A stretch of 55,468 nt of DNA, filler included, from Stramenopiles sp. TOSAG23-6 (taxonomy: Eukaryota), in assembly GCA_900128565.1 (NCBI GenBank). It is 4 parts of 4 records of this genome, joined end to end, with 100 filler letters (N's around TTAATTAATTAA, not from the genome) between each part and the next. Parts side by side here need not be neighbours in the genome. Positions count along the whole stretch, not along the records: positions 13,977 to 27,780 come from LT636158.1; 3 more parts are not named here. One strand, 5' to 3'. A program made the position numbers and the translations under genes. How positions within the stretch are numbered: position 1 is the first letter of the stretch; the number at the start of each line of letters is the position of its first letter. The notes under the pieces were generated by a model, which searched no databases, was not told where the DNA came from, and saw nothing but the letters and a program-made list of their open reading frames with translations. Of the stretch, positions 2,138 to 45,934 are shown piece by piece.

Positions 2138-3713
2138 ATGAGTTTGTGTCGTTTTTTATGGGTTGTACTTTCTGTTCTCTTTGGGAGAAGCTTCCGCCAG
2201 GTCACTTCAGTACAGCAAGTATCAGTAAGTAAGCTTCGGGCTGCGGCTGATTCAGCCATTGTTGCGAAAAACGACACAAAGGCTGCAAAATTGTTGACTC
2301 AGGTAACCAAACTAGAACCAAATAACCACAATAATTTTTACAAACTCTTCCGAGTTCATCTCCGGCTTAAGAAATATACTCACGCTGTGAGAGATTTGCG
2401 TAATGCGTTGAACATCAAACCAAATTTTGGATCTGCTTTATTACAATTGGCTCGACTTGAAACAAAACTCGGTCACTGTGAGGATGCGGTAAAGACGTAT
2501 GGGAAGTTAGTAGCGTGTGGTTCTTCTTGTACAGATTATCAAAAAAAGATTCAAAATGGTCTTTCAAATGCAGAACAATGTATTGTACTCTTAAAAGAAG
2601 CTCATGCTTCAAAGAATAATCGTTCCGTGGCAGTAGATGCCCTTGGGAAAGTTGTTGAATTAAGCCCTCTTTCTCATGACCTTCATCTTTCGAGAGCTAA
2701 AGCTTTGATGGATTTAGAGAAATACTATGAAGTATTAGCTGACACCGGTAAAGCTCTGAAAATACGACATGATTCGATGGATGCTTTATTAATGCGTGCA
2801 AAAGGCTATTATAAACTTACTGAGCATGACATGGCAATGTATGTTTACATGATGAGTCCCTTGGAAGTGTTCAAATTTTATTCAATTTTTTTTTTTAACG
2901 AAATTTTATACCTAACAAGTTTCAATTTTGATATATATTCCAAAATAAATGCGCCATCTTAGAGAAGGTCTGAAATATGATCCTGAGCACAAACTTCTTA
3001 AACAACTCTACAGAATATTGAAGAAAATAATTCGTTTCACAAATAATGCGAATAAAAAATTTGCAAATGGTGAATGGGCAGAATCCAAACAAATGGCACA
3101 GAAAGCAATTGATGCTGATAAAACCCACTTGTCTCATAACAAAACCTTATATGTTATACAAGCAAAAGCAGAGTCAAAGCTAAAAGACCACCGTGCTGCT
3201 GCACAAGCAGCTTCAGAAGCTATTCGCTGTGACCCTTCTTTTATTGAAGCGTATATAGTTCTTGGTGATGCTCAAATCCAATTGGATCAATTTGATGATG
3301 CTGTTAGATCAATGCAACAGGCTGTAAAATTAGACCAACAAAATGAAAACGCAGCAAATGGATTAAAACGAGCCGAAGCCGCTTTGAAACAATCGAAAGA
3401 AAAAAATTATTACAAAATCTTGGAAATTCCAAGAGATGCAAATTCTCGCGAGATTAAGAAAGCATATCGCGCATTAGCATTAAAATGGCATCCAGATAAA
3501 CATGATTCTGAAAACGATAAAGAAAATGCAAAAAAGAAATTTCAAGATATTGCTGAAGCATATGAAATATTATCAGATGATGAACTAAAAGCAAAATATG
3601 ATAGAGGGGAAGATGTCCTTCAGAATCAAGGTGGTGGTGGTGGACATTCTCAACAAACATTTCACTTTTTTAATGGAGGTGGTGGACAACATTTCCATTT
3701 TTCTCATCGATAA
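2138..3713 (+). CDS. DNAJC3: ER TPR + J-domain co-chaperone (P58IPK/DNAJC3-like); exons 2138-2838, 2951-3713
   Basis: Signal peptide, TPR repeats and C-terminal J domain (NYYKILEI...WHPDK). The spliced join gives EHDMAMRHLREGLKYDPEH. Confidence 0.88.
2839..2950 (+). other. GT-AT family intron (112 nt) in DNAJC3
   Basis: GCA AT|GTATGT...TTTTATACCTAAC...CCAAAATAAAT|G CGC CAT; removal joins two ORFs in different frames. Confidence 0.8.
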
Positions 3714-3907
3714 TTGTGTTTAAAATAAAATATCTTTTAAAAATTTAATTTTTCTACAATGTTTTATTAGTATAATTCTCATAAACTGTTTAACAAGTTA
3801 ATTCTTTCTGTTTATTGAAAAATTACAATAGATTTTTTTTTAAATGTTGGAAATAATTTCTTTTTATTCAATATGGAAATTAAATTGAAATTCAATCTAC
3901 ATTTTTA

Positions 3908-7023: not shown

Positions 7024-8490
7024 TTAGATATATTTTAGAGATTCGTCAGTGTTTGATCTACGTCTATGAGAGCTAGCAGAAGCATGTATTTTGGAAAAAT
7101 ATTTCAAAAAAAATCGTTAGGTACAAAATTTCGTAGAAATTCAAATTTGAAAATGTACATGCTGCACTAAAGATCTTCTGTTTGGTTCGATATTAATTGG
7201 ACTACAGCTACGTAGCAAAGCTAATGATTCCGCACTAGAATTACTTGGGATAGGATAAGGGTTACTCAGTGCATTATTTGTAGAATGTAAAGTTTCATTA
7301 TTTCGGTTAAAGTTTAGTTGCAATAATTCTTCGTTGACTGGTTCCACACGCATGGAATGTAACGGGCCCATGTCATTGTTTGAATTATTTGTATTATTTG
7401 TATTTAGGGTAAATTGACTATTTTCTACTGTACTAGGGGCTCCAGAGTTTTCACTATTATATATATTATCAATATCATAATTATCATCATAATTTGGTCT
7501 TTTAAGGGATACTGCCATTGGCACAGTATCATAACTCTTATCGTGTTGGTACGTGTTAGGGTTAGGGTTATCGTGTTGGTACGTGTTAGGGTTAGGGTTA
7601 TCGTGTTGGTAAGTGTTATGAACGCTATCTGTATTTATTCTTGAGTGATCTTGATGATCATGAAAATCAGGAGCATCCTTAATATTTTTTGTAGGTACTA
7701 TTTGCACTTCAGCAGAATATCGGTTTTCTGCATTACGCAACTGATCCTTCTCAGTAGTCACAATGTGCTGATACACCGTACGCATCTCTTCTAACCATTT
7801 GTTTCTCTCTGCTTCGCTAGAACACTGCAACGCTAATTTTAACGGTCTTTGCCTATACTTAAGACCAATCATATGACCAAAGAAACCTGCCGGCTTATGT
7901 TCGAAGTCGACAAGCCCTGTCATTAAAATACAATAGGGTTTGTGAAAATATTGAAAACTTACCCGAGAGGCTCGAGTTTGTGACGTCATACGCAAAAAAC
8001 CACGGGGGATGTCGTCATAATCAGCAGTAACAGAATAAGTGAACACGCCATCAGGTCGAAGTCTAAAATAACGGCGTCTCCAATTTGTAAGTACCCTAGA
8101 ATGAACAGACTGTTTATTAAGCCAACCAGCGTGGCCCATTAGAACTTCTCCCTTTTTATTTACGACAAATCCTCTGGGAGAGTCTACTGCTACCGTTGAC
8201 GAAGCTTGCAATAATTCACCAATATCTGCAACATCTAAACGCAAATCAGCAGCCTCACGACGATATTTCGCTCGTTCAACTTCAAAAGCACTAAGTCGAC
8301 GATTTCTTGTTCTATTCACGACTGAATTACCGAGTCTGATTTTTGCCCTTTTGTCATTAGCTCCCTTATACACAACCTGAGCATAGTCACAAGTATCCAC
8401 AGTTCCAAAGTGGACTTTACGAGATGCAGACTTCCTACGCTTCATATGTCTTGTACCTAGTCCAACTATAGAAGACTTAATTGGCTTCAT
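7024..8490 (-). CDS. PH-domain protein; exons 8490-7159, 7083-7024
   Basis: HAGWLNKQS...NWRRRYFRL...SEAERNKWLEEM is a PH fold. The last exon is inferred from the family intron. Confidence 0.75.
7084..7158 (-). other. GT-AT family intron (75 nt)
   Basis: Minus strand CAG CAT|GTACATTTT...TACGAAATTTTGTACCTAAC...GAAATATTTTTCCAAAATACAT|GCT; contains an in-frame stop. Confidence 0.72.
7538..7611 (-). repeat. Coding 30-bp tandem repeat (HDNPNPNTYQ, ~2.5 copies)
   Basis: TTATCGTGTTGGTACGTGTTAGGGTTAGGG repeated on the + strand. Confidence 0.85.
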
Positions 8491-9929: not shown

Positions 9930-12900
9930 ATGTTTTCTAGTCTTGGCGCACTAATAGGTGCATATCCTGAAGAAGAAGATGAAAATAAGCAGTCCAGTCC
10001 CATATCGCCTCGTGATATGGACACAGCAGAATACAACAAACGGCGGCATGCTTTTCGAGCAGCTTCAATAAGAATAAATAGTGCAGTTATAGATAACGAC
10101 TTCCTATCTGAAAACGATGCTGATTTCTCTCATTCTACTGAAGCTTCTACTACGAATGATGTTTCAATAGATGTACTTTCATCACCCCAACCACGTGGAT
10201 TTTATTCCGAAGATTCCGAAAACAAGTTCGACTTAAGTAAAGTTTCTACTCAATCGAAATCAAGGTTAAATAGGCGGAAAGACGCCAATACGTTGGCTTT
10301 TATCCCCTTGGGTATATTTTTGATGCCAATGCTCTTTATACGAAATTTTGGTCGAACAATAAAGCTTTCTCCTGGGATGGTACATTATAATGAATTTTAC
10401 TCTAGGAAAGCTTGTCAAGAAAATAATTTAGAACCAGATGGATTACAAATCGTTGTTAGGTCAGGAAACAAAGGATTTCAACTGTTGTTTGGACTTTTAT
10501 TTTTTATATCAACGTTATGGGGTTTTTATATTTATGCTATTTATCGTGCTTATTTTAAAACAATCAAACATCAACAGTTGACTATATGTGCATGTTTCAT
10601 CATTTCAGCATTAATAATTGATATTGGGGAAACGCTATTTAGTTTAAATGGGATATGCGAAGGTAGTTGTATTTTTCTGATTGCGTTTGTATATACGATT
10701 CCAAGGTTGACATTTGTGCAAAGTGTGTGTACGGCAATGGGTATCTGGTTCAGCTATAACTTTTTAGCTTTATTTTTTATACATGAAGAAACCTGCCTTG
10801 GACGTGATCCAAGTGCTAAACTTTATCTAGCCATTATCCAATTAATGTATGCCATAGCTTTTGCTTACCCTGGTGATTATGTATTTAGCATTATTCGAAA
10901 GGACACTGCAATGAATGAACAAGTAAAATTAAAAGTTGCAAGTTATGAGCAAGATAAGCAACTATTCAATACTTTATTAGATCAAATTTTGCCAATGGAA
11001 AAAGTTAGAGATATAGTGGAAAGTGGTTCCACCGTGGCAGATCAAGTCTCGAATTGCACTATAATGTTTTGTTTTGTCACAAACATAGAAAATCCGTCGA
11101 TAAAAAAAATGGATCAACACATTCATCTGAATGCATTGTTTTCTAAATTTGATGAAGTAATTGATGATTACGAGACTGTAGAAAAGATTAAAAATATTGG
11201 TTGTGTATATATGTGTGTATCAGGAATTAAAAAAGGTGCAAAAAAACATGCTGAAAATATGCTGGATTTTTGTCTATGTATCACACAAATAATTCAAAAA
11301 TATACAGAAAAGACGACTGACTTACACACTGTTCCCCTCCATTGGAAAATTGGTCTTGCTAGTGGCCCAGCTGTTGGTGGAGTTATTGGTGGTGATAAGT
11401 TTACATATGATGTTTTTGGGGATACAGTCAATCTAGCATCGCGGATGCTTTCGAACGCTCCAAAGGGTCGAATAATGACTACAGAAAAGACTAAAAATGT
11501 CCTACAGAATACATTCAATTGGATTCCCCATCCAAAAGGTAAAGTATTCCTCAAAGGTAAAGGTATGACTCCGGCATTTTTCATCACTAGTCGCAAAAAG
11601 GGAACAATGCCTCTTCGTTCTCTCCGATCTCGAAATTCTAGAAGAAATTCTAAAATTTCTTTTCTCAGGAAAGGTATTTCACAATTGAATTCACAATTGA
11701 ATATTGTTGTGCCTGATAATAATGATCATAATACACTAATAACTGATGAAGAAACTGGTGGTATTGAATTAACTACTTCGAGACGAAAGTTTCCTACAAA
11801 AAAATCATCTTGTGTTGAGGAGTCAGAAAGAAAGAAATCTTGGGCCATCGAGGATAAAGATCAAAAGGAAAAAATAAAGAAATCACTTTGGTATGAAAAG
11901 TCTTGGTCTGCTGAGAAATCTGAAAAAAATCGCGATGAAACTTTTTTTCCTATGAAAAATATGAAAAATATGAATATAGAGGAAATATTAAATATGAATG
12001 AAGAAGATTCTTTACAGGTCACTGGTTGGTTTATTTTACCTTTTTGTGTTGCTTTTCGCAAATTACATTGGAAATTACTTCGATGTTTTGAATGTCTTCG
12101 AAATCGAACTAGTCAAAAATTAATATATAAATTAGATAAACTGATGGAATTAGAACGAAATTTTAGTCTGCAGAAGAAGAAAAACAAACATAATGTTGCG
12201 TTGTGGGTGTTATCCTACCTCTTCGTTGATGTATGTTTGCATGCATGTACTCGACTTTTTATTGTATCAGATTTCTTGACGAACGACTTTGATGTTAAGC
12301 AAAGTGTTTATACTCAAATTGCAGATGTAGCCATGTGGTTATGGATTGTACCTACAATGCTTTTATTCGGAATATGCTTGCTTCCTAAAAGAAAGAAATA
12401 TGAATTAAGTGATTACGGATTCGAAGAGACGTCAAAACGATTTTCTAATTATAACATATCATCAATGGAGAGTGTATACACCTATGTTGATGAATCGAAA
12501 AAAAATTGTCATATAAACACAGTTTCATTTCTGTGTATGATATCTGTTGGACTGGCACATTTATTACAGGTTGCTGTTGAGCCACACTTTACATTCTCGT
12601 TAATCATTTATTTTATATTTACGACGTTATTTGAATTAATTTCGTTTGAAAGCATGCTGTTAACCAACTTGATAATTTTTTCTCTTTACCCGGTTGCGGT
12701 TGTATATTCACCGAATTCGAAGGTAATTACTCATTTTCGAGTTCCACATATGTACNTTTTATTTTTTATTTATTTTTTTTATAGTAAATTTCGTACCTAA
12801 CAAATTTAAAATTTTTTTTTTATTTTTTTTTACAAAAAAATCGATTTTATTTTTTTTATAGTAAATTTCGTACCTAACAAATTTAAAAAAAAATTTTTGA

Positions 12901-13823
12901 AATATTTTTTCAAAATACATAGTATCTCAAACGGATTTGGTTTTGGCGTTTTTAGAATTAGCAATTCCGACACTGACTGTCTGTATTTGTTGCGCGTATT
13001 CTTCTTTGAGGCATGATCGTAAACGTTTTATTCAACTAACTGAACTTTTGAATGAAGAGGATTATGTCAGAAAAAGAAGAGATAATGCGCAACGACTACT
13101 AGAGAAAATCCCGATACCATCTCATGTAATAAAAGACCTTAGAGCTGGACGTCCCATTTACACTGAAACATTTGCGACTGTTTCGTTTGCTGATATTGTC
13201 GGATTCACCAAATTTTCAGGTACAGTTACGGCAATACAACTTGTAAAAATACTGAATACAATGTTTTTAAAATTTGATAAACTTGCAAAACATCATAACG
13301 TGGAAAAGATTAAAACTATCGGAGATTGTTATGTGGCAGCTACTGGCTTATGGGAGGTGAAAGATAATCATACATTTAACTTTGATTCTCCTTGGTCTGA
13401 TGAATCCAATGCCGCGTTAGGATTTGAAATGAAAACGACTCGCTCCAACATAGCAAATCACGCCGTTTTAATGATTCGATTTTCTTTAGATATCCATCGT
13501 GTCATGTTGGCTCTTAATGCTGAGTTTGACTTGAACTTAGTGATTCGATCAGGAGTTCATACTGGACACGTCGTCGGTGGCGTCATTGGATCAAAACGTC
13601 TTGCCTTTGATATTTGGGGTGAAACTGTAGATTTGGCAAATGCTTTCGAAACTAAAGGTATTGGTGGTCGTGTTCATTGTAGTGAAGCTACACGAAATCG
13701 TGCTTCAACTGAATTTGTCTTTGAAAAAAGAAAAGAGCTTATTGAATTACATTTACCAGAAAGAGAACCAATTAAAATTACAGGATTTCTTGTCTTGTCA
13801 AGTAAATTTCCACTCCAGAATAT
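9930..13823 (+). CDS. Membrane class III nucleotidyl (probably adenylyl) cyclase with two catalytic domains; exons 9930-12751, 12921-13823; 3' end cut by contig end
   Basis: Two TM blocks, each followed by a cyclase domain (EKIKNIG...YDVFGDTVNLASRM; FADIVGFT...EKIKTIGDCY...FDIWGETV). Confidence 0.88.
12752..12920 (+). other. GT-AT family intron (169 nt) with duplicated branch-point block
   Basis: CAT AT|GTAC...TTTCGTACCTAAC (twice)...GAAATATTTTTTCAAAATACAT|A GTA. The AG two bases later would frameshift. Confidence 0.78.
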
Positions 13824-13876
13824 GTATGTTTTATATGAATTTCTAATTTAATTTTTTTTTTTTTGGTTTCATACGA
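13824..13876 (+). other. 5' part of a GT-AT family intron, truncated by contig end
   Basis: AAT AT|GTATGTTTT...TTTCATACGA then N-linker. Confidence 0.65.
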
Positions 13877-13976
13877 NNNNNNNNNNNNNNNNNNNNNNNN
13901 NNNNNNNNNNNNNNNNNNNNTTAATTAATTAANNNNNNNNNNNNNNNNNNNNNNNNNNNNNNNNNNNNNNNNNNNN
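13877..13976. other. Artificial contig linker
   Basis: N44-TTAATTAATTAA-N44 (stops in all six frames). Confidence 0.97.
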
Positions 13977-14511: not shown

Positions 14512-14907
14512 TTGTGGCCTTGATCTGCGGCTTTTGTATGTACTCGAAATAAGAAGTGTTAGTCTCCTTGTTAGAATGAATTATATAACAGGGAGCCGGT
14601 AACGTTCTGATTAGTTCCTCTGAGTTCCTCTGCGACTGACTAGATTAAATGAAATTTAGGGAATTTACTAATTTACTAATTTAGGTACAAAAAAATGATA
14701 CAAATCTATATTTAGGTACAAAAAAATGGTACAAATCTAAGTTTTTATAACACGTGGCAGTGGTGACATGTAGTCAATTTTGCGATTTGCGATTTTCCAC
14801 TATTCACTCGGGTGTCAAGTCAACTATAATCTTGAGCTCACTAGTAATTATTCGCGACAAGCCACATTGAATTGATTAATAGGCGGGGGTATTATATCTT
14901 AGAAACT

Positions 14908-19277: not shown

Positions 19278-20125
19278 TTACCAAGCATCATCATCGTCAC
19301 CGCCGAACATGTTTCCAACTTCGACTTCTTCTTCTTCCTCTTCTTCTTCTTCTTCGACTGCCTCTTCAGCTGCAGCACCGCCAGCGCCGCCGCCGCCGCC
19401 GCCGCCACCACCGATGACAAGTGACTCAAGAGCAACAAGGCCCTTGTTGATGCACTCGGTAGCATTCTGTGTAGGCTAATATACAAAAAATATGAATACA
19501 AATGAGAGTCTATTTTCAATCTGGTATGTGTTGATATCAACACGTATACAAAAGGTTTACAAAAAGCGTTGTACAAATTGTATCAACACTTATACTGAAA
19601 CATGACAAAAGAAATTGTTTCTACTGAGCAATCATCTTGTGACAAATTTTTATCGTCAGAAGCTTAAAGGTCACAAATGCGACACAATACGCTTTCATCA
19701 GTCTGGAGCGACACGAATATTTAATCAATTTGCAAGGAGAAACAAATTAAGGGGGGAAATGAAACAAAGTGCAAGGAGAAACGGGAGAAAAAGAGAATTG
19801 AAGACCACTACAATTTTGAAGTGGGTACGAATACTGTGCTTTCTACGTTCAGGTATTATGCTAATATTTAGAAACAGTATGAGCTATATCGTCTTACATT
19901 ATTCTAATTATTACCATATCACTGAAACGTAGAAACACTTGACTGGGGATTATTACTATATTCAATGAGTTCACTTACCTTTCCTTCAACTGTGGACATG
20001 AATTTGGTGAGCTGAGCTTCATCAGCTTCGATTCCGACAGAAGTGAGGACAGCCTTGACCTGATCGGTCGAAGGGGTGTCGTTACCACCGAGGACAAGCA
20101 TAAGGTATGCAGAGACGTACTTCAT
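19278..20125 (-). CDS. RPLP2: 60S acidic ribosomal protein P2; exons 20125-19979, 19466-19278
   Basis: MKYVSAYLMLVLGGN...VEGK|NATECINKG..., then Gly/Ala hinge, acidic tail and FGGDDDDAW*. Confidence 0.92.
19467..19978 (-). other. Canonical GT-AG intron (512 nt)
   Basis: AAG|GTAAGT...CCTACACAG|AAT restores the P2 frame; lacks the family core motif. Confidence 0.88.
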
Positions 20126-20460: not shown

Positions 20461-23400
20461 ATGGCTAAAACGGCAAAACAGAATAGAAAGAGTCGACCAA
20501 AGGGGCAGAATAGAAAACCTGTGCGTCGATTGCCAGAATCTATTATTGCACGTAAGAAAGCTGAAAGTGTGAGTCAACAAGCTGAACTCAGTCCAAGTTT
20601 AATGAACAGTTTGATGTCATCATCGACTACTAGCTATGGCACTATAAATGATACCACAGATTCTCCTAATAGTAATGGAACTATTCTGCTTTCTGTCAGT
20701 TCAAAGCGAAGTAAAAAAAAACCTCATGGGCAGAAAAAGCGTAAGTTTATTTCCCCAATAGAGAAACAGAAAAGAATGAAACAAGCCGCAAAAATGAGTA
20801 AAAAGAAACGTAGGAAACTTATTAAATTACAGGAGAAGAAAGAAGCCGATGCAAAACGTCTTGCGATTTACAAATCTCTTAGTGAAACGGCAATTAGTAC
20901 TGAAGAGCAAAAACTTTTGCTTCCTTCTGGAAATATTGGACAACTTGGTAGTAAACGTGAACGTGTTAAACGTGCTTTCCGGTTAAATAAAGCTGGTATT
21001 CCACTGACAAACGAAGAGACGGAGATTCTTCTAGTTAGAAATGATAAAGTTGGATCGAATTCGAGCAACTCATTTAAAGAAAAAAGCAACATATGTAGTG
21101 TTTCAAAGGAAACTATTTTTGATGGTAAAAAAAGACCGGATAATATTGAAAATTTCGCTTCGCAAAACGAAAGTATCAAAGATCAAAGTATAACTAAAGA
21201 AGAATGCAAAATTATTAAAGCTAAAACTGAAAGTGAAAAAGATTGCAATATTAGAGTGGCTGAATTGAAAAGTAAGAAAGAAGCAGCAAAGAAAGAGGCA
21301 TTACTCCTAAACCGCGCTAAAAACATAGCTATAATTAAAGCCCAGAAAAAAGAATTACACCGTGTACAGAATGCACCTACAACATGTGTTGTACATATTG
21401 ATCGCAACCCTGAAATCCAAGAACAGAGGCTAAAACTTCCTGTATGTGGAATTGAGCAAGAAATTATAGAATCTGTTCAAAACAATGATGTAATTATTCT
21501 ATGTGGTGCTACGGGCTCTGGTAAAACAACACAAACCCCTCAATTTCTTTATGAAGCAGGTTATTCAACAGCAGCTACAAAACGGGGTATGATTGGTGTG
21601 ACGCAACCACGTCGTGTAGCTGCTATGTCAATGGGTACAAGAGTGGCAGAAGAACTCAATACTCCTCTCGGTAAAAGAGGATTTGTATCGTATCACGTCC
21701 GTCATGATTCATCAGGAGTTCATGATGGTACTCGTATTAAATTTATGACAGAAGGTGTATGTTTTATTCTTTTTCAAATTCGAATTTTTTTTTCGTACGA
21801 CATTTTGTACCTAACGAATTTTTTTTGAAATATTTTTCCAAAAAACATATTCTACTGCAAGAAGGGTGCCGAGATTTACTATTAAAACAGTATAGTGCAA
21901 TTATAATTGATGAAGCTCATGAACGGAATTTGGATACAGATGTTTTGCTTGGCTTATTATCACGTGTCGTACCACTGCGAAGACAAATGTACGATGCAGG
22001 TGAAGTTTGTCCTGGTGAAAATTTCGTTTTACCACCACTTAAACTTATCATTATGAGTGCTACATTAAAAGTATCTGATTTTATCGATAATAAGCGATTA
22101 TTTTCGAAACCACCGCCTGTGATAAAAGCTGATTCGCGAAGACATCCAGTGACGATTCATTTCAATCGAAAAACTCCTTTGAATGACTATCTTAAAAAAG
22201 TTGTAAGTAAAGTTGGAGCTATACATAAAAAATTACCAGAGGGGACAATTGTTGTTTTTCTTCCTGGTCGAAAAGAAATTGAATGGGTTTGTAGAAAGTT
22301 AAGGCGAAAATATGGCCATCGAGCAAATATTGACTGCCAGATGTCAATGAGTGATGAAGATTCTTTTGATAGTGATATAAGTATGAGTGGTGGTGAAAGT
22401 GGTGATGATATTGAACCTGATCAAATGAGAACGCCAAATGAACACTCAAATGAAACATCTACAAGTAATTTGAATAGTGAAAAGATTGAAAATTCTATTG
22501 CAAACGCTGAGACTAATGTTGATGATGTAGATACCAGTCCGATAGATGATATTGTTGTTATTCCAGGGACAATTGAATCATCAAAGTCATCAGAATCAAT
22601 GGACGAGGAAAACAACGGATCTTTATTAGGACCATCAAAACCATCGACGATGCCTATGCATGTACTTCCAATGTACTCTATGCTTCCAAAACAAGCACAA
22701 ATGAAAGTATTTGAACCACCTCCACCTGGGCATCGATTAGTTGTTGTTGCCACAAATGTTGCAGAAAGTAGTATTACTATACCAAATACTGTATATATTG
22801 TTGACTCTGGACGTGAAAGAAACCGCGTGTATAACGCAACTTCTGGAATATCTACATTCGAAGTAAATTGGATATCAAAAGCATCAGCAGATCAACGTGC
22901 AGGTCGTGCAGGCCGTACTGGTCCAGGGCATGCATATCGGTTATATTCCTCAGCCGTTTTCAATGATTATTTTAAACTTTTTTCTCCTCCAGAAATTTTA
23001 GCAACACCATTGGAAGACGTTGTCATTCATTTAAAAAGACTTGGTATTCATCACGTGTCTGCTTTCCCTTTTCCATCAGCTCCACCCGTATCGAATATTC
23101 GACAAGCCTTAGTTGATTTATGGAATTTAGGATTGCTCAATATGGAAGGAGATTCGACATCAAATAGTCAAAAGTTCATAGATAATGTAAAGTATGAAAA
23201 CAATAGTACATCTAAAAACACATCAAATATTTCCAGTAGTATTAACAAAATGAATGAAGTATTAAACGAAGCGAAATCACTTCGTTCAAAACACTTAGTA
23301 AACAAGGTGGGAACAAAAAATCAAGTTTGTGGTGCAAATGATGATGTTATTCATCAAAGTCTTCAACTAGACTTTGCGAAACTAAAAGATGATGGCGAAT

Positions 23401-24929
23401 TAACAAATTTGGGTCTAGCCAGTGCAGAATACCCAGTATCTGCACGATTTGGCAAAATGCTTGCTCTCGCTCGTACATCTAGCTCACAGAATGTCAACTA
23501 TATTCCATATGTAATTGCACTAGTTTCGGCAATGTCAACTCAAGCACCTTTTGTGATGAGTCGCAGTCATGGCAATACTAATGATGCAGAAACAAAAGAG
23601 GAAATGAAAGAAGATCGAGTTAAAGCCATGAAAATGTTAGATAAAGATGGATCCAATTCCTGCAATGCTATCGCATGTGAAATTGAAATTGATGCTAAAT
23701 TAACAGCTGATGAACAAAATGTTTTAGAAAAAAAACGAAAAGAAGAACAGTGTTTATCACAGTGGGCTCATATAGAGAGTGATGCTTTATCACTCCTTCG
23801 TATCGTTGGAGCATATAGCTTTGGTACAAGTTCATCACAACCACATAAACAGCGTGAATGGTGTGAAGCCCGTGGATTGCGTCCGAAAACAATGCGGGAA
23901 ATAGAACAGTTACGTATCCAACTTTCACGTTCGATTTGGAAGCATTCAGAGACAAATAATAATAAGTTGTCAAAGCAACAAAACACAACAAAATTTACAT
24001 TTTACCGTCAAATTCTCCCTCCAACACGCGACGACGAACGCTTCCTTCGACAGGTGATTCTTTCCGGTTATCTAGATCATGTAGCGAAACGTATTGATAA
24101 TATCCATGGCGGTGTAAAGAGGACGAAGGGTCGAGTTGCTTATAGAAGTGTTAATCCATTGATTCAAGAAGAACTCTATATTCACAGCAATAGTTTCGTT
24201 CCTTGTAGACCTGCTCGCAATGGTGATGCTCCTGAATATGTTATCTACAGTGATATAACAAGATCAACCCCACATGATACTAGAACAGAGGAAGAAAAGG
24301 CAGATGATGTTGCTGCTGGTATTTTGGGTAATCCAGATTCGAGATTGTTCATGAGAGGTGTTACTATTATTGAAGCCAAGTGGTTACCTACAGTAGCAAA
24401 TGGATCCCCTCTTCTACACAACGGCGACGAGGTACTACTGGATCCGCCACCATATTATAATACAACCAGTGATAGTATACTTTGTTACCGTCAATATAAG
24501 TATGGCACTTACGCCTGGACTCTTCCATTACAAACCGAAGAGCATCCAAAAGGCTCGAATAAAATTCAATGGTTTGCTCGGCGTCTTCTTGAAGGATGTG
24601 TTGTACTAGATCCAAGTGGGTCTAATGTATTTCATGACTTGAGGCCACATTATGGTGCATCGCCGAAGATTCTTACTGCAACAATTACAAAAGATGGTAT
24701 GAATGGTGTAGATGCAAAAAGGGTTTTGGGCATTATCAGACCTCTCAGACAGCGACAGGTGGATAGTCTTGAAAAACTACTCAAAGCATGGAAAAGTGAT
24801 CCTAATTTTCTAATGAAGGGTCTCCGTAATTGGCTAAAAAAGTCAGAACAGAAACGAATCGTAAGAATATGGCAAAGAATTATCCGCGAATCAAAAAGTT
24901 CATTTAAAAACAACAAAAAGTTCGTTTAA
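20461..24929 (+). CDS. DHX37: DEAH-box RNA helicase DHX37/Dhr1; exons 20461-21756, 21849-24929
   Basis: GATGSGKTTQ, TQPRRVAA, IKFMTEG|ILLQE, DEAH, MSAT, SKASADQRAGRAGRTGPGH. Confidence 0.92.
21757..21848 (+). other. GT-AT family intron (92 nt)
   Basis: GAA GGT|GTATGT...TTTCGTACGACATTTTGTACCTAAC...TTCCAAAAAACAT|ATT CTA. GT-AT restores motif Ib (MTEGILL), and the intron contains no AG. Confidence 0.85.
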
Positions 24930-27728: not shown

Positions 27729-27780
27729 ATATATGTGAAAAAATATTTCAAAAAAAAATCTAAAAAAATTGTTAGGTACG
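27729..27780 (-). other. 3' part of a GT-AT family intron, truncated by contig end
   Basis: Minus strand CGTACCTAAC...GAAATATTTTTTCACATATAT|GTA CTA; the exact AT used is uncertain within ATATAT. Confidence 0.65.
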
Positions 27781-27880
27781 NNNNNNNNNNNNNNNNNNNN
27801 NNNNNNNNNNNNNNNNNNNNNNNNTTAATTAATTAANNNNNNNNNNNNNNNNNNNNNNNNNNNNNNNNNNNNNNNNNNNN
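27781..27880. other. Artificial contig linker
   Basis: N44-TTAATTAATTAA-N44. Confidence 0.97.
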
Positions 27881-29614
27881 GCAATGTGTAAAGATAAATT
27901 GTTTCTTCAAGACACAGTTGAAAGTGCCTCAGCAAAGGTCGGCGGTTTATCATCAGAGTTACGTGTAGAGGCTCTTGCCTTAGCTCGTAAATTGAATCCC
28001 GGCTTAAAAATGTGGACAAAGACCGATTGGGATCACCGTCGAAAGGTAAAGGAAGCAATGGAGAAACATGGTAATGAGATCAACTCACCTTGGATTGAAG
28101 TTTATGATCCCGGAGAAAAAAGTTTTTATTATTGGCATCAAGAAACACACGAGACAACATGGGAGCAACCAAAGGGATACAAAATGTCATGTGATGACTC
28201 AATTATGAGTTCTGCAATACGAATTCAAAACTTTTGGAGAATAGTTTTAGCTCGAATTCGTACCAAAATAAGAAAGACAGTATTTGATATGAATGTGACT
28301 AAGACCGCATTGATTGAACAGATTTCGGCGAGTAGAACAAGACAACACAAAAATGAAGAGATTATTTGTGATTGGGTAGAATCATTTGACTCTGAAAATG
28401 ATGCATATTATTACTACAATTATGCTACAGGAATGACAGTTTGGGACAAGCCCTCTGATTATGTGATGGCAGCAGATGACTTACTGTTTAAATCTGTCAT
28501 AAAACTACAATGTGCATATCGTTCTCGATGTGCTTATCGCAAATTTCATAGAAAGAAAATGAATCACACATTCTTAGAAAAAATAGCAACAGAAAAGTCG
28601 TTGAGACTCTCAGAAATATCAGCAGAAGCAACATCATATGCTGATATGTTATCAGATGAATTAGTAACTGTCGTTGTTGGACCCGGACAATTAGGTTTGC
28701 AAATGAAAGCTGGGTCTGATGGTTGTGGAGTTATTGTGAAAGGATTTGTCCTTACTAAAGCAAAAACGTTTTCCCGAGCAGGTGTTACCATTGGTATGAA
28801 ATTAGTGAGGGTAAATGGTCGAAATGTCGCATTGTCTGCATTTGGCGAAGTTTTAGATTACTTTAAGAAACATGCAGCGGACCCAAAACGTTTAGTATTT
28901 TGCTCAGCGGAAAAAGATGTTATTGAAATTGCCAACGAAATGGATTCGCTAAGAGAGCTTTGGGCAGCCAGAAGAATTCGTAGAATATGGAACCAGCGCA
29001 AAGCCAACAAAGCGTATAATGAAGAAAAGTTGAATAGATTAATTGAGATCGAGCTGAACACCGAAGCTGTTTTGATTGTTGTACCAACTGGGGAGCGTCT
29101 TGGTGTGGTTCTTGCTCCTTGTCCACAATCACATAGTAAAAATAATACAAAAAAATCGAATATTCCAATCGAAGCATGTGTCAAAGAATTTATCGCTGTT
29201 GGCAGGTCACATGATGGAAAAGCTATCATGGGGTCCATTCAAAGACATGGAGATGTATGTTTTATTTTTTTTTCAATTTCGAATATTTTTTTTTCGTACG
29301 AAATTTTGTACCTAACAAGTTTTACATTTTTTTTTTTTTTTTTCACAAAACATGTACAACTTGGAATGAAGCTCAGCAGTATCAATGGTGTTAGTACATT
29401 GGGTATGCCAACTGCTGATATTTTTGTAGCATTGCGCAAAGCTAGTAATTATTCACAATTTAATCAAGTGGGAACATATTTAGTATTTGGTGAAAAGAAT
29501 AGTAATGATCTTCGATTAGAAGCTGCTAATTTCATCAATTCACAACTTCGAAAACAATCTAGATCTTTTAAAAATGCTACATCGAAGTTGAAATATATTC
29601 TCCGCAAACCTTAG
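27881..29614 (+). CDS. WW / IQ / PDZ-like multidomain protein (5' truncated); intron 29255-29353
   Basis: Two WW domains (W...YYWHQETHETTWEQP; YYYNYATGMTVWDKP), IQ-like IQNFWR/LQCAYR, and PDZ-like GQLGL...GMKLVRVNG. Confidence 0.78.
   Translation, partial: AMCKDKLFLQDTVESASAKVGGLSSELRVEALALARKLNPGLKMWTKTDWDHRRKVKEAMEKHGNEINSPWIEVYDPGEKSFYYWHQETHETTWEQPKGYKMSCDDSIMSSAIRIQNFWRIVLARIRTKIRKTVFDMNVTKTALIEQISASRTRQHKNEEIICDWVESFDSENDAYYYYNYATGMTVWDKPSDYVMAADDLLFKSVIKLQCAYRSRCAYRKFHRKKMNHTFLEKIATEKSLRLSEISAEATSYADMLSDELVTVVVGPGQLGLQMKAGSDGCGVIVKGFVLTKAKTFSRAGVTIGMKLVRVNGRNVALSAFGEVLDYFKKHAADPKRLVFCSAEKDVIEIANEMDSLRELWAARRIRRIWNQRKANKAYNEEKLNRLIEIELNTEAVLIVVPTGERLGVVLAPCPQSHSKNNTKKSNIPIEACVKEFIAVGRSHDGKAIMGSIQRHGDVCFIFFSISNIFFSYEILYLTSFTFFFFFFTKHVQLGMKLSSINGVSTLGMPTADIFVALRKASNYSQFNQVGTYLVFGEKNSNDLRLEAANFINSQLRKQSRSFKNATSKLKYILRKP
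29255..29353 (+). other. GT-AT family intron (99 nt, in-frame, stop-free)
   Basis: GGA GAT|GTATGT...TTTCGTACGAAATTTTGTACCTAAC...CACAAAACAT|GTA CAA; removal gives PDZ-like GDVQLGMKLSSING. Confidence 0.8.
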
Positions 29615-29784: not shown

Positions 29785-30789
29785 TCATTCATTATCAACT
29801 TTCAATTGATCGGGTGATGCTTCGTTGACAAGAGCTCGAGACAACGCAAACATCGGGTCAATGTATTTTGGAAAAATATTTCAAAAAAAAAAAAACTAAA
29901 ATTTGTTAGGTACAAAATTTCGTACGAAAAAAATAAATTCGAAATTGAAAAAAAATAAAACATACATGAGTGGAACATCAAATAATTCCTTTTCAGGTAA
30001 AGCAATTGGGATTTCAGTGCAACCTAAAATAATAACTTCTGCACCCATATCTTTCAAATCATTTACGCAGTTAACAAATATATTTCGTGCTTTTTTTGTG
30101 ACGGGAAATGTTGCTTTTACACCCCATTCTGGATTATAAATTGCGTCATGTAATGTAGATTGCGCATCATTGGAGACTTCAATGAATTGAAATTCACAAA
30201 GTGTATCAGGGTATACATTTGATAAACGAGTACCACTGGTTGACATTAATCCAACTTTTTTTGTTTTTGGAGAAACTTTGCGAATGAAGTTTGCAGTTTC
30301 ATCAATCATGTGCAACAATTTAACGTTTGGTAAAGTGGATATTTTTTCTTTAAAAGGATCCCATATCACCGATGCATGAAATGTGTTACATGGTACACCT
30401 ATAACAACGTGATTACTTCTATTTGTAACATTACTATTTACCGCAGAAAATATTGAATTAACTACTTCAAACATTGCATCACCAGGATTTTCCAAGTCTT
30501 CTCCTTTCTTCTGTGTGATAAAATTTGTACGGTCTGGAATTATGCGAGATTTAGATAAATGAAATATATCGAGATGCCCTTGATCACCGCCTCCAAGAGT
30601 TAACGTGTTTTCTATTATCATTTTGTGTAAAAGGCAACCAGCCATTGGGCCGACACCTCCGGCTATACCAATTGCAGACTGAGCAGCCGAAGTCGCAATA
30701 GTATTCCGAATATTCCTTTGAAACAAATCATTCTTCCCAATGTAGCACATACGATGCATAATGCGACGATATAGTATTGGAACGATCAT
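29785..30789 (-). CDS. PLP-independent aspartate/glutamate racemase family protein; exons 30789-29966, 29860-29785
   Basis: IGIAGGVGP, IPDRT, PCNTFH and LGCTEIP catalytic cysteines; spliced C-terminus VPLIDP. Confidence 0.88.
29861..29965 (-). other. GT-AT family intron (105 nt)
   Basis: Minus strand CTC AT|GTATGT...core...GAAATATTTTTCCAAAATACAT|T GAC CCG. Confidence 0.83.
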
Positions 30790-31420
30790 GGCAATATTTA
30801 TATGATCTTTAGAAGCTTTTGTTTAATAGTGTTTTTTTGTTCGCGTTGTGATTGTTTATTTTTCATTTTTCATTTTTGAGTTTTGACCATCATTTTTTGA
30901 CAACACAAGACTTAGCTTAGTTCTCGCAGCTGCATTTCTGTTATGAACTTATTTATGATAAAAAATTGAAAATTATACGATGACCTATAATATATCTCAG
31001 CTTTGTGCCGACCGTTTTGTAATTATATATTATGATGTATTTGATTGTGCCCACCGTTTAAACTTTATTGTACCATGCAGATATATCCTCTATAGAATAT
31101 CCATATACGAAGAAAAGTTTCGCCAAGTGTAAAATGACGATGCAAAACTTAAAATCTCGATTCTTCAGACTACTCATTATGTCAATTTGTAATTTGTGTA
31201 AAAATGGTTCTTTTTCAAACACGATTTCTTTTTCAAAATTCCTTTTATCGCCTTTTTTAGGGTTATAGTTTATTGTGTTGGATTTCTGCAATACCTCGAA
31301 TATAACCGTTGATATTGCAACGAATTGAAATAATTTCGATACTACTAAAATTAATCTTGTATGATTGTCAATTTCATTATTTTCTATACTTCGAGGAACT
31401 CCAACATAATTGCTGATGTC

Positions 31421-31611
31421 ATGTATTTTAGAAAAATATTTCAAAAAAAAATCATTAGGTACAAAATTTCGTACGAAAAATAAATTCGAAATTGAAAAAA
31501 AATTTCGTATGAAAAAAATAAATTCGAAATTGGTAAAACGTTCAATTTTGAAAAAAAATCTAAAAAAATTTCTTAGGTACAAAATTTCGTACGAAAAAAA
31601 TTAAAACATAC
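31421..31611 (-). other. GT-AT family intron (191 nt) containing two core motifs
   Basis: CTC AT|GTATGT...GTACCTAAG...GTACCTAAT...TTCTAAAATACAT|G; possibly a chimeric assembly of two copies. Confidence 0.6.
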
Positions 31612-32585: not shown

Positions 32586-35411
32586 ATGGTTAAACACAAA
32601 ACTAATCTCGAGAATCCATGGGATGGTGAGGACTGGCAATCTGTTGATGTCACTATGGAAACAGCCATGTCTTGGAGTGAAGGGGGATTTCTCGGTCTTG
32701 AAGTTTTAGATGGCAGCACTGTTGAAGTAAAGAAGGGTAAAGGTGGAGTATGCACGATCAAATCCCGTAGGCCAAAGAAAACAAGTAAGCGTAAGCGTAA
32801 GAACACAAGCAAATCAATGTCTTTTGATTTGTCTTCAAAAAGTACGACAATTCCGAAAGACTATGCAACAGGAAAGCCATCGTTGTCAAAAGATGTAGAA
32901 GAATCTCCTTTGATAACTCGTCCTTCAACTATCGACAGTAAGGAGGAATTACGCTCTATAGATGCCCAGATAGCTTTTCTCGAAGCGAAAAAAATTGATG
33001 CTCAGATCAAAGCGTTACAGGCAAAGAAATATTCGCTCACTAAAAGGATAACAGTGACAACTAATTCAGCAAATTCTGAGTCTGAGCCTAATCCTAACAC
33101 TCAGAAAGAAAAGTGTAATAATGTAAATAGTACAACAGTATCAAGTGAAAAGAAGAAGAAGAAACGCAAACGTGACCGAAGTAAAGAACGAGCAGCACGG
33201 AAACGCCGCAAGGCATCTGGAATTACAGTAGCTGAAGAGCGAAAATTATTGAAAAAGAATTTATCTGGTACTGTTCAGAAAAATACGAGAAACAATTCGT
33301 TAGGTACGGAATTTCGTACGAAAAATCATTGTGACATGAGTGCGTGGGAATCTCTTAATCTTCACTCAGATCTTATAGCTAATTTGCAAAAATTAGGTTT
33401 CGATACCCCAACTCCGATACAACTTAAATGTATTGCTGCTGCTGTAACGACAGGCAAAGATGTTCTTGGTGCTGCTGAAACAGGATCCGGTAAAACTCTT
33501 GCGTTTTCATTACCGATTCTTGTACGTTTTAATCTTGAATTTCGAATTTCAATTTTTTTTTCATACGAAATTTCGTACCTAACAAATATTTTTTCTTAAA
33601 ATTGTTTTTTCACAATACATCATCGTTTATTAGAAGAACGTGACATTTTTGAAGCAAAACGAGCACGAGATACTATGGATGGTATTGTAGAACAAGAACA
33701 ACAATCTGAAGATACACGTCTTCGATGTTTGATCATTTGCCCTACTAGAGAACTTGCACTTCAGGTAACCCGTCATATTATAAAAGTATCATGTGATACT
33801 GGTATTAATGTTATGGCTCTTGTAGGTGGTATGGCACAAGTGAAACAGGATCGATTACTTGCGAAACGTCCTGAGATTATTGTTGGAACTCCTGGACGTT
33901 TATGGCAATTAATGAGAGATGGTCAAGAGCATTTAAATGATCTTTCAGCAGTTAATTTTCTAGCAATAGACGAAGCGGATCGAATGGCATCTCCTGGAAG
34001 TTATCCAGAATTAAAAATGATTTTTGAAAAATTGAAAAAATCAGATGAATTAGTTGAATCAGGATCAATGTTTAGTAGAAAGGCGCAAATGTTTAATGAT
34101 CTCGCTGATTTTGATGACGATGTAGTGAATTTGTCTGAGGATGATGAAGATGACATTGTATCTAGTGATGTGAATGATGATGTAAATGAAGAAGAAAATC
34201 GTACAAATTCATTACCAATGAATGCTGTTTCTCCAAATACTCAAAAACAAAAGAAACAATTAAAGAAACAAGGTCGAAGATATAGTAGAGTACATCGCCA
34301 AGTACTTCTCTTTTCAGCAACTTTAACAATTGGTCAAGAAGGACGTGAACAACGAAAAAGTAACAAAAACAATAATCAAAATGTACAAAACTCTGGTAGT
34401 ATTGATAAGAATATTTATTCTTTAGCTCTTCTTTGTGGTTGTGGCAAATTTTCTACACCTGCAATCATTGATGTTACTACGGCATCTACAAAAACACCAT
34501 CCAAGACTGAAATAATTCAATATGGGAAAAAAAAATCTCAATTTTCACTTCCTGATGGTCTTGAACTTTGTCAAATATTTTGTTCGGATGATGAGAAAGA
34601 TGCATATCTTTATTATTTTTTTTCAGAATATGCTGGGAGGACACTTATTTTTGTGAATGCTATATCACATGTAAAACGATTAACTGTTTTATTACAACTT
34701 TTGAAACTTCCTGCGTACTCTTTACATGCAAAAATGCAGCAACGTGCGCGCCTTAAAAATCTTGATCGATTTCGTGCAGAAAAAAATACTATCTTAGTTG
34801 CGACTGACGTTGCTGCTCGTGGATTAGATATTCCTTTAGTGGAACATGTTGTTAATTATCATTTGCCACGATCTACTGAATTATTCGTTCATCGTAGTGG
34901 ACGTACAGCTAGAGCAAATACAGAAGGAATTAGTATTTCGCTTGTGGCAGCACAGGAACAATCTCTATATAGAACAACATGTAATGTTTTAGGAATGCCT
35001 CAAGGTCTTGCTGCGTTCCCTGTAGATTTGTCTTCTATGAAACAATTACACACTCGTTGTAATATAGCCAAAAAATTAGCAATTTTACAAGTAAAACTTT
35101 CTAAAAAAAAAAGTAAAAATAATTGGTTAATTCAAGCTGCAAGGGACGCTGATATTGTTATGGATGAAAATCTTCGACACGAAATGTCTAATAATGGTTC
35201 TGATGAAAAACGTCAAAAAGTTTTAGTTGCTCAATTAGCAGCGGAAATGAATAGACCTTTACTTGGTCGAGTCAGAGGAGGGATGTTGAAGGTTAAGGTA
35301 GCACATGCCGAAGCAAGTACAAAAAAGAAAAGATCTCAGGAAAAAGCGAAACTAACACGAAAAGCAGCAAGCGATCTCCGATATTCCGGTTCAATGAATG
35401 GATTTAACTGA
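32586..35411 (+). CDS. DDX24: DEAD-box RNA helicase DDX24/Mak5; exons 32586-33521, 33621-35411
   Basis: [10 protein letters not shown]-terminal motif, [46 protein letters not shown]. Confidence 0.92.
33522..33620 (+). other. GT-AT family intron (99 nt)
   Basis: ATT CTT|GTACGT...TTTCGTACCTAAC...CACAATACAT|CAT CGT; contains a stop and no AG; no upstream AT, so an AT-AC reading is impossible. Confidence 0.85.
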
Positions 35412-41485: not shown

Positions 41486-41574
41486 ATGTAAAGAAATATT
41501 TGAAATTATAAATTTGTTAGGTACAAAATTTGGTGCGAAAAAAATTAAAATTAAAATTCATGATGAAAATGTAC
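41486..41574 (-). other. GT-AT family intron-like unit (89 nt), directly preceded by the 3' part of another copy (41575-41640)
   Basis: Minus strand GCCAT|GTACATTTT...AAATTTTGTACCTAAC...AAATATTTCTTTACAT|GG CAT. Confidence 0.6.
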
Positions 41575-41640
41575 ATGGCAAAAAAAAAAAAAAAAAAAAA
41601 ATAAAAAATTTGTTTAGGTAAAAAATTTTGTACCAAAAAA

Positions 41641-42052: not shown

Positions 42053-43288
42053 ATGCGCAGAGATGTGCTTTTATCTTGGGCATTATTGTTTGGAGTAAAT
42101 ATTATAGGGAATTTCATACTGATTCCTATAAATATGAATTTGCTTCTGCAGGCATTTTTAACTATTTACATTGGTGCGCATGATTCTTTATTAAACGTTG
42201 AGGAGGAAAATCTGACGATGGAGGATGCTGGTATGTTTCCTGTATTTGGATCTTTCATGTTGTTGTCTCTATATGTTGTATTTAAGCTATTTGACAAGGA
42301 ATATGTCAATATGCTTCTACTGGCATATTTTATTATGGTGGGTACATTTGCTCTTGCCAGTGCTATTTCACCATTAGTAAGATGTCTCCTCGGAAAGGAA
42401 ACCCAGAAGGAGAAAAAAACCAAGAAGGAGAAAAAAACAAATGGATCTAATCCTAACGCTTTATTCTGTGTAACAATCCCTCTTCCTAAATTTGTAGACG
42501 ATAAACCTTTGGTTATTTCTCCGGACTTTTCTCAAATTATTGCTTTTCTACTTGCTACCATCAACGCTACAGTATACCTAAAAACCAAACACTGGTGTGC
42601 CAACAATATTTTTGGATGTGTCTTTTCATTATCCGCAATCAAGCAAATTAAACTGGGTAGCTACAAAATTGGGTGCCTCCTTCTCATTGGACTATTTTTT
42701 TATGACATATTCTGGGTTTTTGGGACTGATGTGATGGTCACTGTAGCAAAATCGTTTGACGCACCCATTAAACTTCTCTTTCCCCGTGAGTTCGCCACAA
42801 TAGATACGAAAATGCAATTCTCAATGCTCGGTCTTGGTGATATCGTGATGCCTGGTATATTTCTTGCACTATTACTTCGATTTGATTTCAAAAAATCTCA
42901 GAAAGGAGAGATAGACTGTGTTGACTTGTCTGTTCGAGAAACGGCAACGTTTACTAAAACCTATTTTAACATTGGTATGATCTTTTATACATTGGGTTTA
43001 AGTACAACAGTTTTTGTTATGTATACATTTAAAGCTGCCCAGCCAGCTTTATTATATTTGGTACCTGCTTGTCTCTTATCGTCTTTCCTCCCAGCGTACG
43101 TTTTAGTTTTTTCAATTTATATCTAAATTTGTTTTTCGTACGAAATTTCGTACCTAACAAAACAAATTTNAAAAAAAAATATTTTTTCACAATTTATGTT
43201 ATTCTTTGGAGAAATTGGAAAACTTTTTGCATATGAAGACTTAACTATTGTCGTCCCAGAGGAAGACAAAAAGAAAAAGGATAATTAA
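42053..43288 (+). CDS. HM13: Signal peptide peptidase; exons 42053-43095, 43198-43288
   Basis: YDIFWVF, LGLGD and QPALLYLVP motifs; spliced tail PALFFGEIGKLFAYED...KKKKDN. Confidence 0.92.
43096..43197 (+). other. GT-AT family intron (102 nt)
   Basis: CCA GC|GTACGT...TTTCGTACGAAATTTCGTACCTAAC...CACAATTTAT|G TTA; contains a stop. Confidence 0.8.
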
Positions 43289-44816: not shown

Positions 44817-45934
44817 ATGATGACCGCATTAAGAAGGCGCATTTGTCATTTTTATTCGGGAATGACTAATCAACGTACATTATCTTCACTATCGTCTGGA
44901 AATTCTGGTCACGTATGTGTAAATGGTATAGACTTGCATTTTGTGAAAAGTGGCCCACCAGATCCGTTATGCATAGATGATAATCCAATCATTTGTATGC
45001 CTGGAGCTTTAGGAACTGCAGCCACAGATTTTTCTCCCCAGTTAGACAACATAAATGGCCTTGCAAATTCGCATGATGTTATTTCGTTCGATCCTCGGGG
45101 ATATGGAAAATCTAGACCTCCTGTTCGTGATTTCCCCCTTGATTTTTATCACAGGGATGCAGATGATGCTGCTGAGCTCATGAACGTTCTTGGCCACAAA
45201 AAATATACAGTAATGGGTTGGAGTGATGGTGCAATTAGTGCTGTCATCCATGCAGCTCGACATCCTGATCGTGTGAGGAGTTTAATAATATTTGGAGGTA
45301 ACGCCTTTTTTACAGCTGATGATATTGCTGCTTTCGAAGCAACTCGGGATGTTGAAAAATCGTGGAGTTCACGGATGAAAGACACACATACTCCTGTGTA
45401 TGGTTCTGACTTGCAGGACATGTGGTCAGGTGCATGTGATGCATGGGCTCGAATTCTTCATGAACTTGATGGGAATATGTACGCTTTTTAAATTAAATTT
45501 AAAATTGTTTTTTCGAAGAAAACAATTGAATTAAAAATATTTTTCACTAACAAAAAAATTGAACTAAAAATATTTTTCACAATATATCTGCGTCGATGAA
45601 GCACGATCTCTCCAATGTCCTACGTTAATTCTACACGGTGCGAAAGATCCACTTTGTCTTCAGACCCATGCAGAGTGGTTTCTAGACAATATTCCAAATT
45701 CACAATTGAAAATATTTCCTGATGGGAAGCATGTATGAATTATTTTTTTTCAAATTCGATTTTTTTTCGTACGAAAATTTGTACCTAACAAATTTTAGTT
45801 TTTTTTTTTTTTTGAAATATTTTTCCAAAATACATAATCTTCATTTACGTTTTGCTGATGATTTTAATAAAATGGTATCTGAATTTATCAAAAGTGTATA
45901 TATAGAAAAAGAGAAACAAACAGTAAACTTGTAA
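44817..45934 (+). CDS. BPHL: Valacyclovir hydrolase/BPHL-like alpha/beta hydrolase; exons 44817-45478, 45588-45732, 45836-45934
   Basis: PGALG, DPRGYGKSRPP, GWSDG nucleophile; spliced DGNI|C...CPTLILHGAKDP...GKH|NLHLRFADDFN. Confidence 0.9.
45479..45587 (+). other. GT-AT intron (109 nt, divergent family member)
   Basis: AAT AT|GTACGC...CACTAAC...AAATATTTTTCACAATATAT|C TGC. Confidence 0.8.
45733..45835 (+). other. GT-AT family intron (103 nt)
   Basis: AAG CAT|GTATGA...core...GAAATATTTTTCCAAAATACAT|AAT CTT. The internal TAG would add 37 nt and frameshift. Confidence 0.85.

Follow-up and report, generated by a model that had tools for sequence, protein, structure and literature searches.

Introners, as treated in the accessible text of one survey (PMC9860276), carry GT, GC or GA at their 5' end and AG as their core 3' dinucleotide. 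In the tunicate Fritillaria borealis, the major spliceosome handles, next to ordinary introns, others that end in AC or AT, according to the available portion of PMC13326754. We analysed a stretch of 55,468 nucleotides from Stramenopiles sp. TOSAG23-6 (GCA_900128565.1), called here the window, which is made of four contigs of ~13.8 kb apiece joined by linkers N-TTAATTAATTAA-N at 13877-13976, 27781-27880 and 41641-41740. Its gene for a DHX37/Dhr1-type DEAH helicase is interrupted by a 92-nt insert that starts with GT and ends with AT. From its sequence, this insert is best read as a spliceosomal intron of a multi-copy, transposon-like "introner" family, and we consider it likely that the copies of this family are, as a whole, spliceosomal GT-AT introns.

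The DHX37 gene (20461..24929, + strand, counted from the earliest ATG in the open frame up to its stop; named from its translation and from homologues called DHX37/DHR1) has two exons, and the Pfam domains of its product are DHX37_C, Helicase_C, OB_NTP_bind and HA2_C. The intron, placed by the sequence and by mapping the exons on solved chains, extends over 21757..21848 (+). A preliminary description of this DNA held that the DHX37 intron and the DDX24 intron presented below are free of AG, and the count is indeed 0 in each. The junction reads ...ACAGAAGGT/GTATGT...AAAAAACAT/ATTCTACTG... (in close-up GAAGGT/GTATGT...AAAAAACAT/ATTCTA, slashes marking the proposed splice sites), and excising exactly 21757-21848 yields an open frame of 1,483 codons up to the stop. 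The two exon ends were compared separately with solved structures: the last residue of exon 1 corresponds to residue 351 of human DHX37 (7mqa_NS), 172 of 6o16_A, 495 of yeast Dhr1 (6h57_A) and 119 of 7mqj_A, and the first residue of exon 2 to residues 352, 173, 496 and 120, respectively. The exon ends thus fall on consecutive residues in 4/4 solved DHX37/Dhr1 chains, which indicates that the exons abut, no residue being lost or gained. The GT-AT product also aligns without gap with P0002, the closest good orthologue, with equal length over motif Ib and nearly the same residues at the junction.

One may suppose instead that the inserts are removed as GT-AG introns via nearby cryptic sites, the proteins tolerating small deletions. 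Pairs of this sort that keep the frame do exist, 21755-21861 and 21761-21864 in DHX37 and 33526-33633 in DDX24, and the public gene models P0001, P0196 and P0197 use such pairs: P0001 takes 21761-21864 in DHX37, which gives ...TEGVWCRD.... We scored against the orthologues all GT/GC-AG and AT-AC pairs located within 40 nt of the intron ends. Versus P0002, the GT-AT product of DHX37 scores 219, the best canonical pair 198 and the pair of P0001 195. As the preliminary description had it, the first AGs after the DHX37 donor shift the frame (the exon AGs at +13, +16 and +25 are all out of frame), and the GT 2 nt upstream costs the residues GILLQ: the 21755 GT combined with the 21861 AG is in frame and drops G-I-L-L-Q from helicase motif Ib. 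More generally, the models relying on cryptic pairs drop or replace residues that are kept in the closest orthologues and in the four solved structures, and their scores are lower; over the whole family, the donor combined with the first exon AG shifts the frame in 8/12 complete copies.

The intron of the DDX24/Mak5-type DEAD helicase gene, delimited with the orthologue P0198, is 99 nt long (33522..33620, +; CTT/GT...CAT/CAT). Its GT-AT excision produces ten junction-spanning residues identical to those of P0198, the closest orthologue, in a gapless alignment, and scores 171, the next alternative reaching 155; none of the three AGs downstream of the family donor keeps the frame. In the comparison with the PDB, exon 1 is aligned through its last residue and the alignments of exon 2 begin ~30 residues in, so that they provide no residue-level test of the junction. 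The signal peptide peptidase (SPP) gene contains an intron of 102 nt, one N included, placed by the frame and by scoring the C-terminus (43096..43197, +; AGC/GT...TAT/GTT); its single AG lies close to the 5' end. Here GT-AT excision restores the conserved C-terminal segment that follows the PAL motif: against 133 reference C-termini it scores 72.6 on average, and 26/26 alternatives, retention included, stay at 52.5 or below. No GT-AG pair within 40 nt restores this C-terminus, which adds to the points against cryptic sites, and we regard removal through such sites as very unlikely. The flanks that had been given beforehand for the DDX24 (CTT/GT..CAT/CAT) and SPP (GC/GT..TAT/G) introns are present in the sequence, and the alignment of the spliced proteins with orthologues supports, at the protein level, the three predicted junctions GGT^ATT, CTT^CAT and GC^GTTA.

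The DHX37 insert belongs to a family of 75-191-nt repeats of the form GTAYGT...TACCTAAC...T-rich...YAT, present in the window as 12 complete copies plus 3 cut by contig ends. The 13-mer of the family 5' end (up to 2 mismatches) occurs 13 times versus 3.8 expected in the window. Invariant columns in an 11-copy alignment include the 5' GT, the CTAAC of the TACCTAAC branch box and the 3' AT; the base preceding the final AT is not invariant: it is mostly C, with A in one copy and T in two. GTA begins all 14 copies that have their 5' end, as GTATGT or GTACGT in 10/14, and AT terminates all 14 that have their 3' end, mostly as ACAT. The branch A is 31-47 nt from the end, the tail contains 35-59% T (13 copies), and beyond 8 nt past the branch there is no AG. 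The complete copies are inside, or next to, genes for a helicase, a protease, a cyclase, a racemase, a hydrolase and others. Their orientation follows that of the genes: 10/12 are preceded on the same strand by at least 260 open codons that run into the 5' site, an eleventh (45733..45835) follows a hydrolase domain, both partial copies embedded in an open reading frame (ORF) are in sense, and none is antisense inside a gene. Five copies have open frames of at least 250 codons on both sides (in the TPR-DnaJ, cyclase, DHX37, DDX24 and cold-shock-domain genes), and all five join in frame under GT-AT. One further copy with the same ends is carried by an independent metagenome contig (L001), the sole contig with the core pattern of the family in the metagenome collection; the viral collection gave 0 matches to this pattern.

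Read two bases earlier, the members of the family would be AT-AC introns, either minor-type or U2-type, the odd copies being errors or exceptions. It had been pointed out that most members show AT on both sides, and AT does precede GT in 8/12 complete copies, with AC before the final AT; in these eight, GT-AT and AT-AC yield identical mRNA. On the other hand AT-AC is impossible in 4/12 copies (DHX37, DDX24, SPP and the cold-shock-domain gene), and the TPR-DnaJ copy shifted two bases back becomes AT-AA; the cold-shock-domain and TPR-DnaJ copies extend the argument beyond the three genes named beforehand. Within 40 nt of the ends, each AT-AC pair scores under GT-AT or breaks the frame. Moreover the 5' GTAYGT differs from the minor-type consensus, the branch box is further from the end than is usual in minor introns, and the final AT is invariant whereas the C preceding it varies. 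The AT-AC reading is for us extremely improbable. GT-AT is the sole terminal pair possible in 12/12 copies, and it is because one pair is common to all copies that we take it as the register of the family; frame, orthology and consistency within the family support this choice. The preliminary description went further and took GT..AT for the only sensible register preserving the conserved protein in DHX37, DDX24 and SPP. It is the best-scoring one in the three genes, but the junctions alone leave other pairs, the SPP junction being compatible with GT-AT, TA-TG and AC-GT.

Several observations weigh against GT-AT splicing of the family. The junctions of DHX37, DDX24 and the cold-shock-domain gene admit GT-AT or TG-CA only, and the junction alone cannot separate these two. 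In three copies (2839-2950, 29255-29353 and 41486-41574) use of the first exon AG also keeps the frame. A composite intron made of partial tandem copies (31413..31611, -, from family match and frame check) loses the frame if it ends at the usual place, 31421 (31421-31611); it would be in frame if it ended at an AT 4 nt earlier or at a second ACAT 5 nt later (31416, 196 nt), and also if it ended at an AG 8 nt later (31413, 199 nt), an end that suits the cryptic GT-AG explanation. Among 75 hits from 291 candidates, no short and near-identical protein fragment spans the DHX37 junction, the best identity being 61%. Finally, by the textbook view of the second catalytic step, an intron whose last base is U would be expected to splice poorly.

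How such introns might be spliced is suggested by their signals. The family has the 5' consensus, the CTRAY branch box and the pyrimidine tract of U2-type introns, and lacks their 3' AG. GT-AT is known among the rare non-canonical classes of U12-type introns; the 5' GTAYGTTTT of the family and its TACCTAAC box 31-47 nt from the end do not, however, agree with the U12-type consensus. Each copy would thus bring its own yeast-like 5' site GTAYGT, its TACCTAAC branch site, its T-rich tract and its YAT end; the major (U2-type) spliceosome would recognise the 5' site and the branch site normally, and in the second step the exons would be joined after the terminal AT, 31-47 nt beyond the branch A, with no AG in between. 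We infer that the copies are removed at the RNA level, with a role of the major spliceosome, and that they spread by transposition; the major spliceosome of this organism would then accept YAT besides YAG in the second step, at least in the context of the family.

An ordinary intron is found 2 kb from that of DHX37, on the same contig: the ribosomal protein P2 gene contains a GTAAGT...CACAG intron of 512 nt (19467..19978, -), delimited by Pfam continuity. Exon 1 ends with position 33 of the Pfam model Ribosomal_60s (match 2-33), and the first residue behind the CACAG acceptor opens the match to positions 34-87, so that the model is continuous from 33 to 34. With an ordinary GT-AG intron in the same genome, recognition of the 3' site would have to accept introns whose last base is G as well as those ending in U. 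Other ordinary introns, tiny ones of 29-45 nt with the form GTAAGT/GTACGT...ACAG, are possible at 7918-7962 (-), 36260-36294 (-) and 36391-36419 (-); of these stretches, one is internal to the match with the PH domain and another belongs to a MYND zinc-finger gene whose frame did not close.

Another way to remove the inserts from RNA would be the pairing of the intron ends, in the style of euglenids or Amoebophrya, without the usual splice-site chemistry. Bases 3-9 of the DHX37 copy can indeed pair with its last 7 bases, and in 9/13 copies direct repeats of 2-3 nt lie over the boundaries, which resembles the repeats of Amoebophrya (PMC7789003, in its accessible text). When 13 copies were folded, though, no common structure appeared: few of them pair their ends in the minimum-energy fold, only 2/13 have a z-score below -2, and the register of pairing varies among copies. 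What is strongly conserved is a 5' site of textbook form together with a branch box. In the window, Rfam at gathering thresholds gave no match. We attribute to end pairing a very low probability.

The inserts might also stay in the RNA, as transposon insertions that disable genes (pseudogenes or an insertion allele), or they might be precisely excised from DNA before expression. Their ends resemble short inverted repeats, a 3-nt direct repeat stands across the boundaries in 7/13 copies, and decayed, pseudogenised dynein genes are reported for one MAST-3 lineage in the available part of PMC5778133. Excision from DNA makes needless the 5' site, the branch box and the T tract, which the in-gene copies nevertheless carry, all in sense. 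A ciliate-style excision from TA to TA was tried on the DHX37 copy and rejected: removing these 90 nt breaks the frame. As to non-removal, the interrupted helicase genes, DHX37/Dhr1 and DDX24/Mak5, which we take to be ribosome-biogenesis helicases, have otherwise intact and conserved exons. Independent seawater DNA runs contain 44-71% (0.44-0.71) of the sampled words of the contig, a figure that reflects word sharing only; for the sequencing runs recorded as RNA (11 rows) the best word share, with the same meaning, is 0.20. Altogether, retention or DNA-level excision seems to us very unlikely, and splicing as GT-AT introns is the explanation we keep in what follows.

Many similar copies in unrelated genes is what defines introners, and the family presents it; its GT-AT borders depart from the canonical GY-AG. 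The similarity of the copies, the way contigs break within them and the short, imperfect inverted repeat, which is all that the ends share, lead us to call it a transposon-like introner. The end of the upstream exon repeats the end of the intron over 3 nt in 7/13 copies, 2 nt in 2/13, 1 nt in 3/13 and 0 nt in 1/13. The TPR-DnaJ copy, with AAT on both sides instead of CAT, favours a target-site duplication; the four copies that lack the repeat favour insertion behind a preferred (C)AT without duplication. In its appearance the family suggests a recent burst of transposon-born introns. In the window, three contig ends lie within copies (13824-13876, 27729-27780 and 41575-41640), which suggests that the repeat probably breaks assemblies.

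The other complete copies are as follows. The copy of the cold-shock-domain gene (47188..47287, -; 100 nt, GGT/GT...CAT/TCG) joins frames of 297 and at least 300 codons, and that of the TPR-DnaJ gene (2839..2950, +; 112 nt, AAT/GT...AAT/G) frames of 260 and 254 codons; for the latter, the comparison with the PDB gave no chain common to both exon ends. An internally duplicated copy of 169 nt separates two cyclase domains (12752..12920, +) and joins in frame; use of the AG 2 nt beyond its AT would break a frame that runs more than 300 codons into the second cyclase domain. From family match and domain search, a 75-nt copy lies near the 3' end of a PH-domain gene (7084..7158, -), a 105-nt copy in an Asp/Glu racemase gene (29861..29965, -) and a 103-nt copy just past the catalytic-His region of an alpha/beta hydrolase (45733..45835, +). 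From family match and open frames, a 99-nt copy is placed in a WW-domain gene (29255..29353, +), the frame being also open if it is retained. The last complete copy, a family match of 89 nt, is upstream of the CEP44 open frame (41486..41574, -). The three incomplete copies, also family matches, are a 5' part (13824..13876, +), a 3' part ending TATAT/G (27729..27780, -) and a 3' part adjoining the 41486-41574 copy (41575..41640, -), each cut at a contig end.

Degenerate copies or fragments are seen outside open frames at 6590-6690 (-), 1026-1090 and 1273-1400, one of them with a flanking 18-nt direct repeat. A match to the family core of 27-50 nt, in antisense, is also present in the coding sequence of DDX24 exon 1 (33275-33325, +). 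We rejected the possibility that it represents another intron: in the alignment with P0198, which has three residues fewer at this place, the region behaves as coding sequence. The match may represent a fragment of the family that was exonised.

The four contigs have a GC content of 31-40% across the window and encode eukaryotic genes: DEAH and DEAD helicases, histone H2A, dynein heavy chain, signal peptide peptidase and others. The closest protein matches are the gene models P0001, P0196 and P0197, with the source label 'GSMAST32...', followed by models from one related genome (P0002 with 52% and P0198 with 56% identity) and then by oomycetes. P0001 is 85-97% identical to the window per tblastn segment, and the differences that we inspected are blocks absent from the model. 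This suggests as host an AT-rich, MAST-3-like marine stramenopile, the placement in MAST-3 being that of the gene-model label alone.

Besides the family, the window shows a few other features. A 19-nt tandem duplication (54930-54982, -) interrupts the frame of the dynein heavy chain gene, which stays open for 2,153 codons downstream; dropping one copy restores the frame, and the cause could be a true frameshift or an error of assembly or amplification. A telomere-like motif, TTAGGGTTAGGG (up to 1 mismatch), occurs 8 times versus 0.05 expected, at 2012, 7556, 7586, 8616, 9632, 25914, 40278 and 41876; judging by the ORF list these sites are mostly intergenic, a placement reminiscent of a promoter element, and similar motifs are found on L001. 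Two coding tandem-repeat arrays, at 3856-5025 and 13977-14516, consist of 11 x 87 nt (29-residue units) and 4 x 108 nt.

The public gene models that correspond to this DNA either force GT-AG pairs on the family introns or run into them. This concerns P0001 (20776-24926 on the window), P0196 and P0197 (32514-35408) and P0316 (42035-43123). In P0001 part of helicase motif Ib is missing, together with several other blocks of open frame; P0196 and P0197, for DDX24, lack 12-18 residues after motif I; P0316, a 96% identical representative of SPP, runs into the intron and stops, so that the conserved C-terminus is lost. For genomes of this kind it may be necessary to re-examine gene counts, completeness estimates and statements about gene decay, and the family may also limit assembly.

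We lean, if only slightly, towards a broader view: an entire lineage of uncultured marine stramenopiles would possess thousands of transposon-born GT...AT introns, removed by the major spliceosome beside GT-AG introns. The figure of thousands is an extrapolation, 15 copies in 55 kb giving several thousand in a genome of ~20 Mb. If this view is true, recognition of the 3' site in the second step accepts U as well as G, possibly via changed 3' site factors, and systematic mis-splicing affects the gene sets published for these organisms. Few signals of eukaryotic genes are as constant as the 3' AG of major-type introns, from which the family departs only in the last base. It would show that transposon-born introns need neither bring nor recruit an AG, and with its perfect 5' and branch sites it would constitute a clean system for studying the choice of the 3' site.

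In the literature searched, supplementary files being outside the search, we found no description of GT-AT or other non-canonical introns in heterotrophic stramenopiles, MAST-3 included; in the accessible text of the single-cell genome paper on MAST-3 (PMC5778133), 'intron' appears twice, each time in the methods, and 'splic' not at all. Other systems serve here for comparison. The non-conventional introns of euglenids, as presented in the available part of PMC4770533, also have non-canonical borders in nuclear genes; their borders are variable and a structure draws their ends together, whereas the borders are fixed here and no structure is common to the copies. Amoebophrya is a marine protist with repeated introns whose borders are not GT-AG. 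Its introns are described, in the part of PMC7789003 at hand, with direct repeats of 3-5 nt over the boundaries and inverted repeats; they have no dominant terminal pair, and the joining of the exon ends has been ascribed, as a proposal, to hairpins. The present family differs by its fixed GT-AT ends, by a clear branch box and by the lack of a shared hairpin.

The minor 5' and branch consensus is absent from the family, where the branch is 31-47 nt from the end; this sets it apart from U12-type introns. The rare U12-type introns with non-canonical ends (PMC1557818, as far as its accessible text goes) would have the same terminal dinucleotides as here, if one counts among them, as we do, a GT-AT class. 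The non-canonical introns of F. borealis, which end in AC or AT, share with ours the AT end and probably the major spliceosome, and a link of such introns to introner transposons with weak sites is discussed in the available text of PMC13326754. Most introns of that species escape GT/AG at both ends, which is tied there to duplicated U2AF subunits; here, by contrast, the strong 5' site GTAYGT is canonical, the departure from the rule is limited to the last base, and the host is a stramenopile protist.

The family resembles the introners of marine protists and fungi, transposon-derived spliceosomal introns in many copies, as surveyed in the accessible part of PMC9860276: near-identical short introns in unrelated genes, AT-richer than the exons, with their own splice signals, some of the copies having short direct repeats or inverted ends, and with copies that break contigs. 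The difference lies in the 3' AT, found here in all the copies whose 3' end is present. According to the same text the survey began from annotated introns, so that it could not detect a GT-AT family. Introners themselves are known; what is new here is an introner family with a fixed 3' end other than AG.

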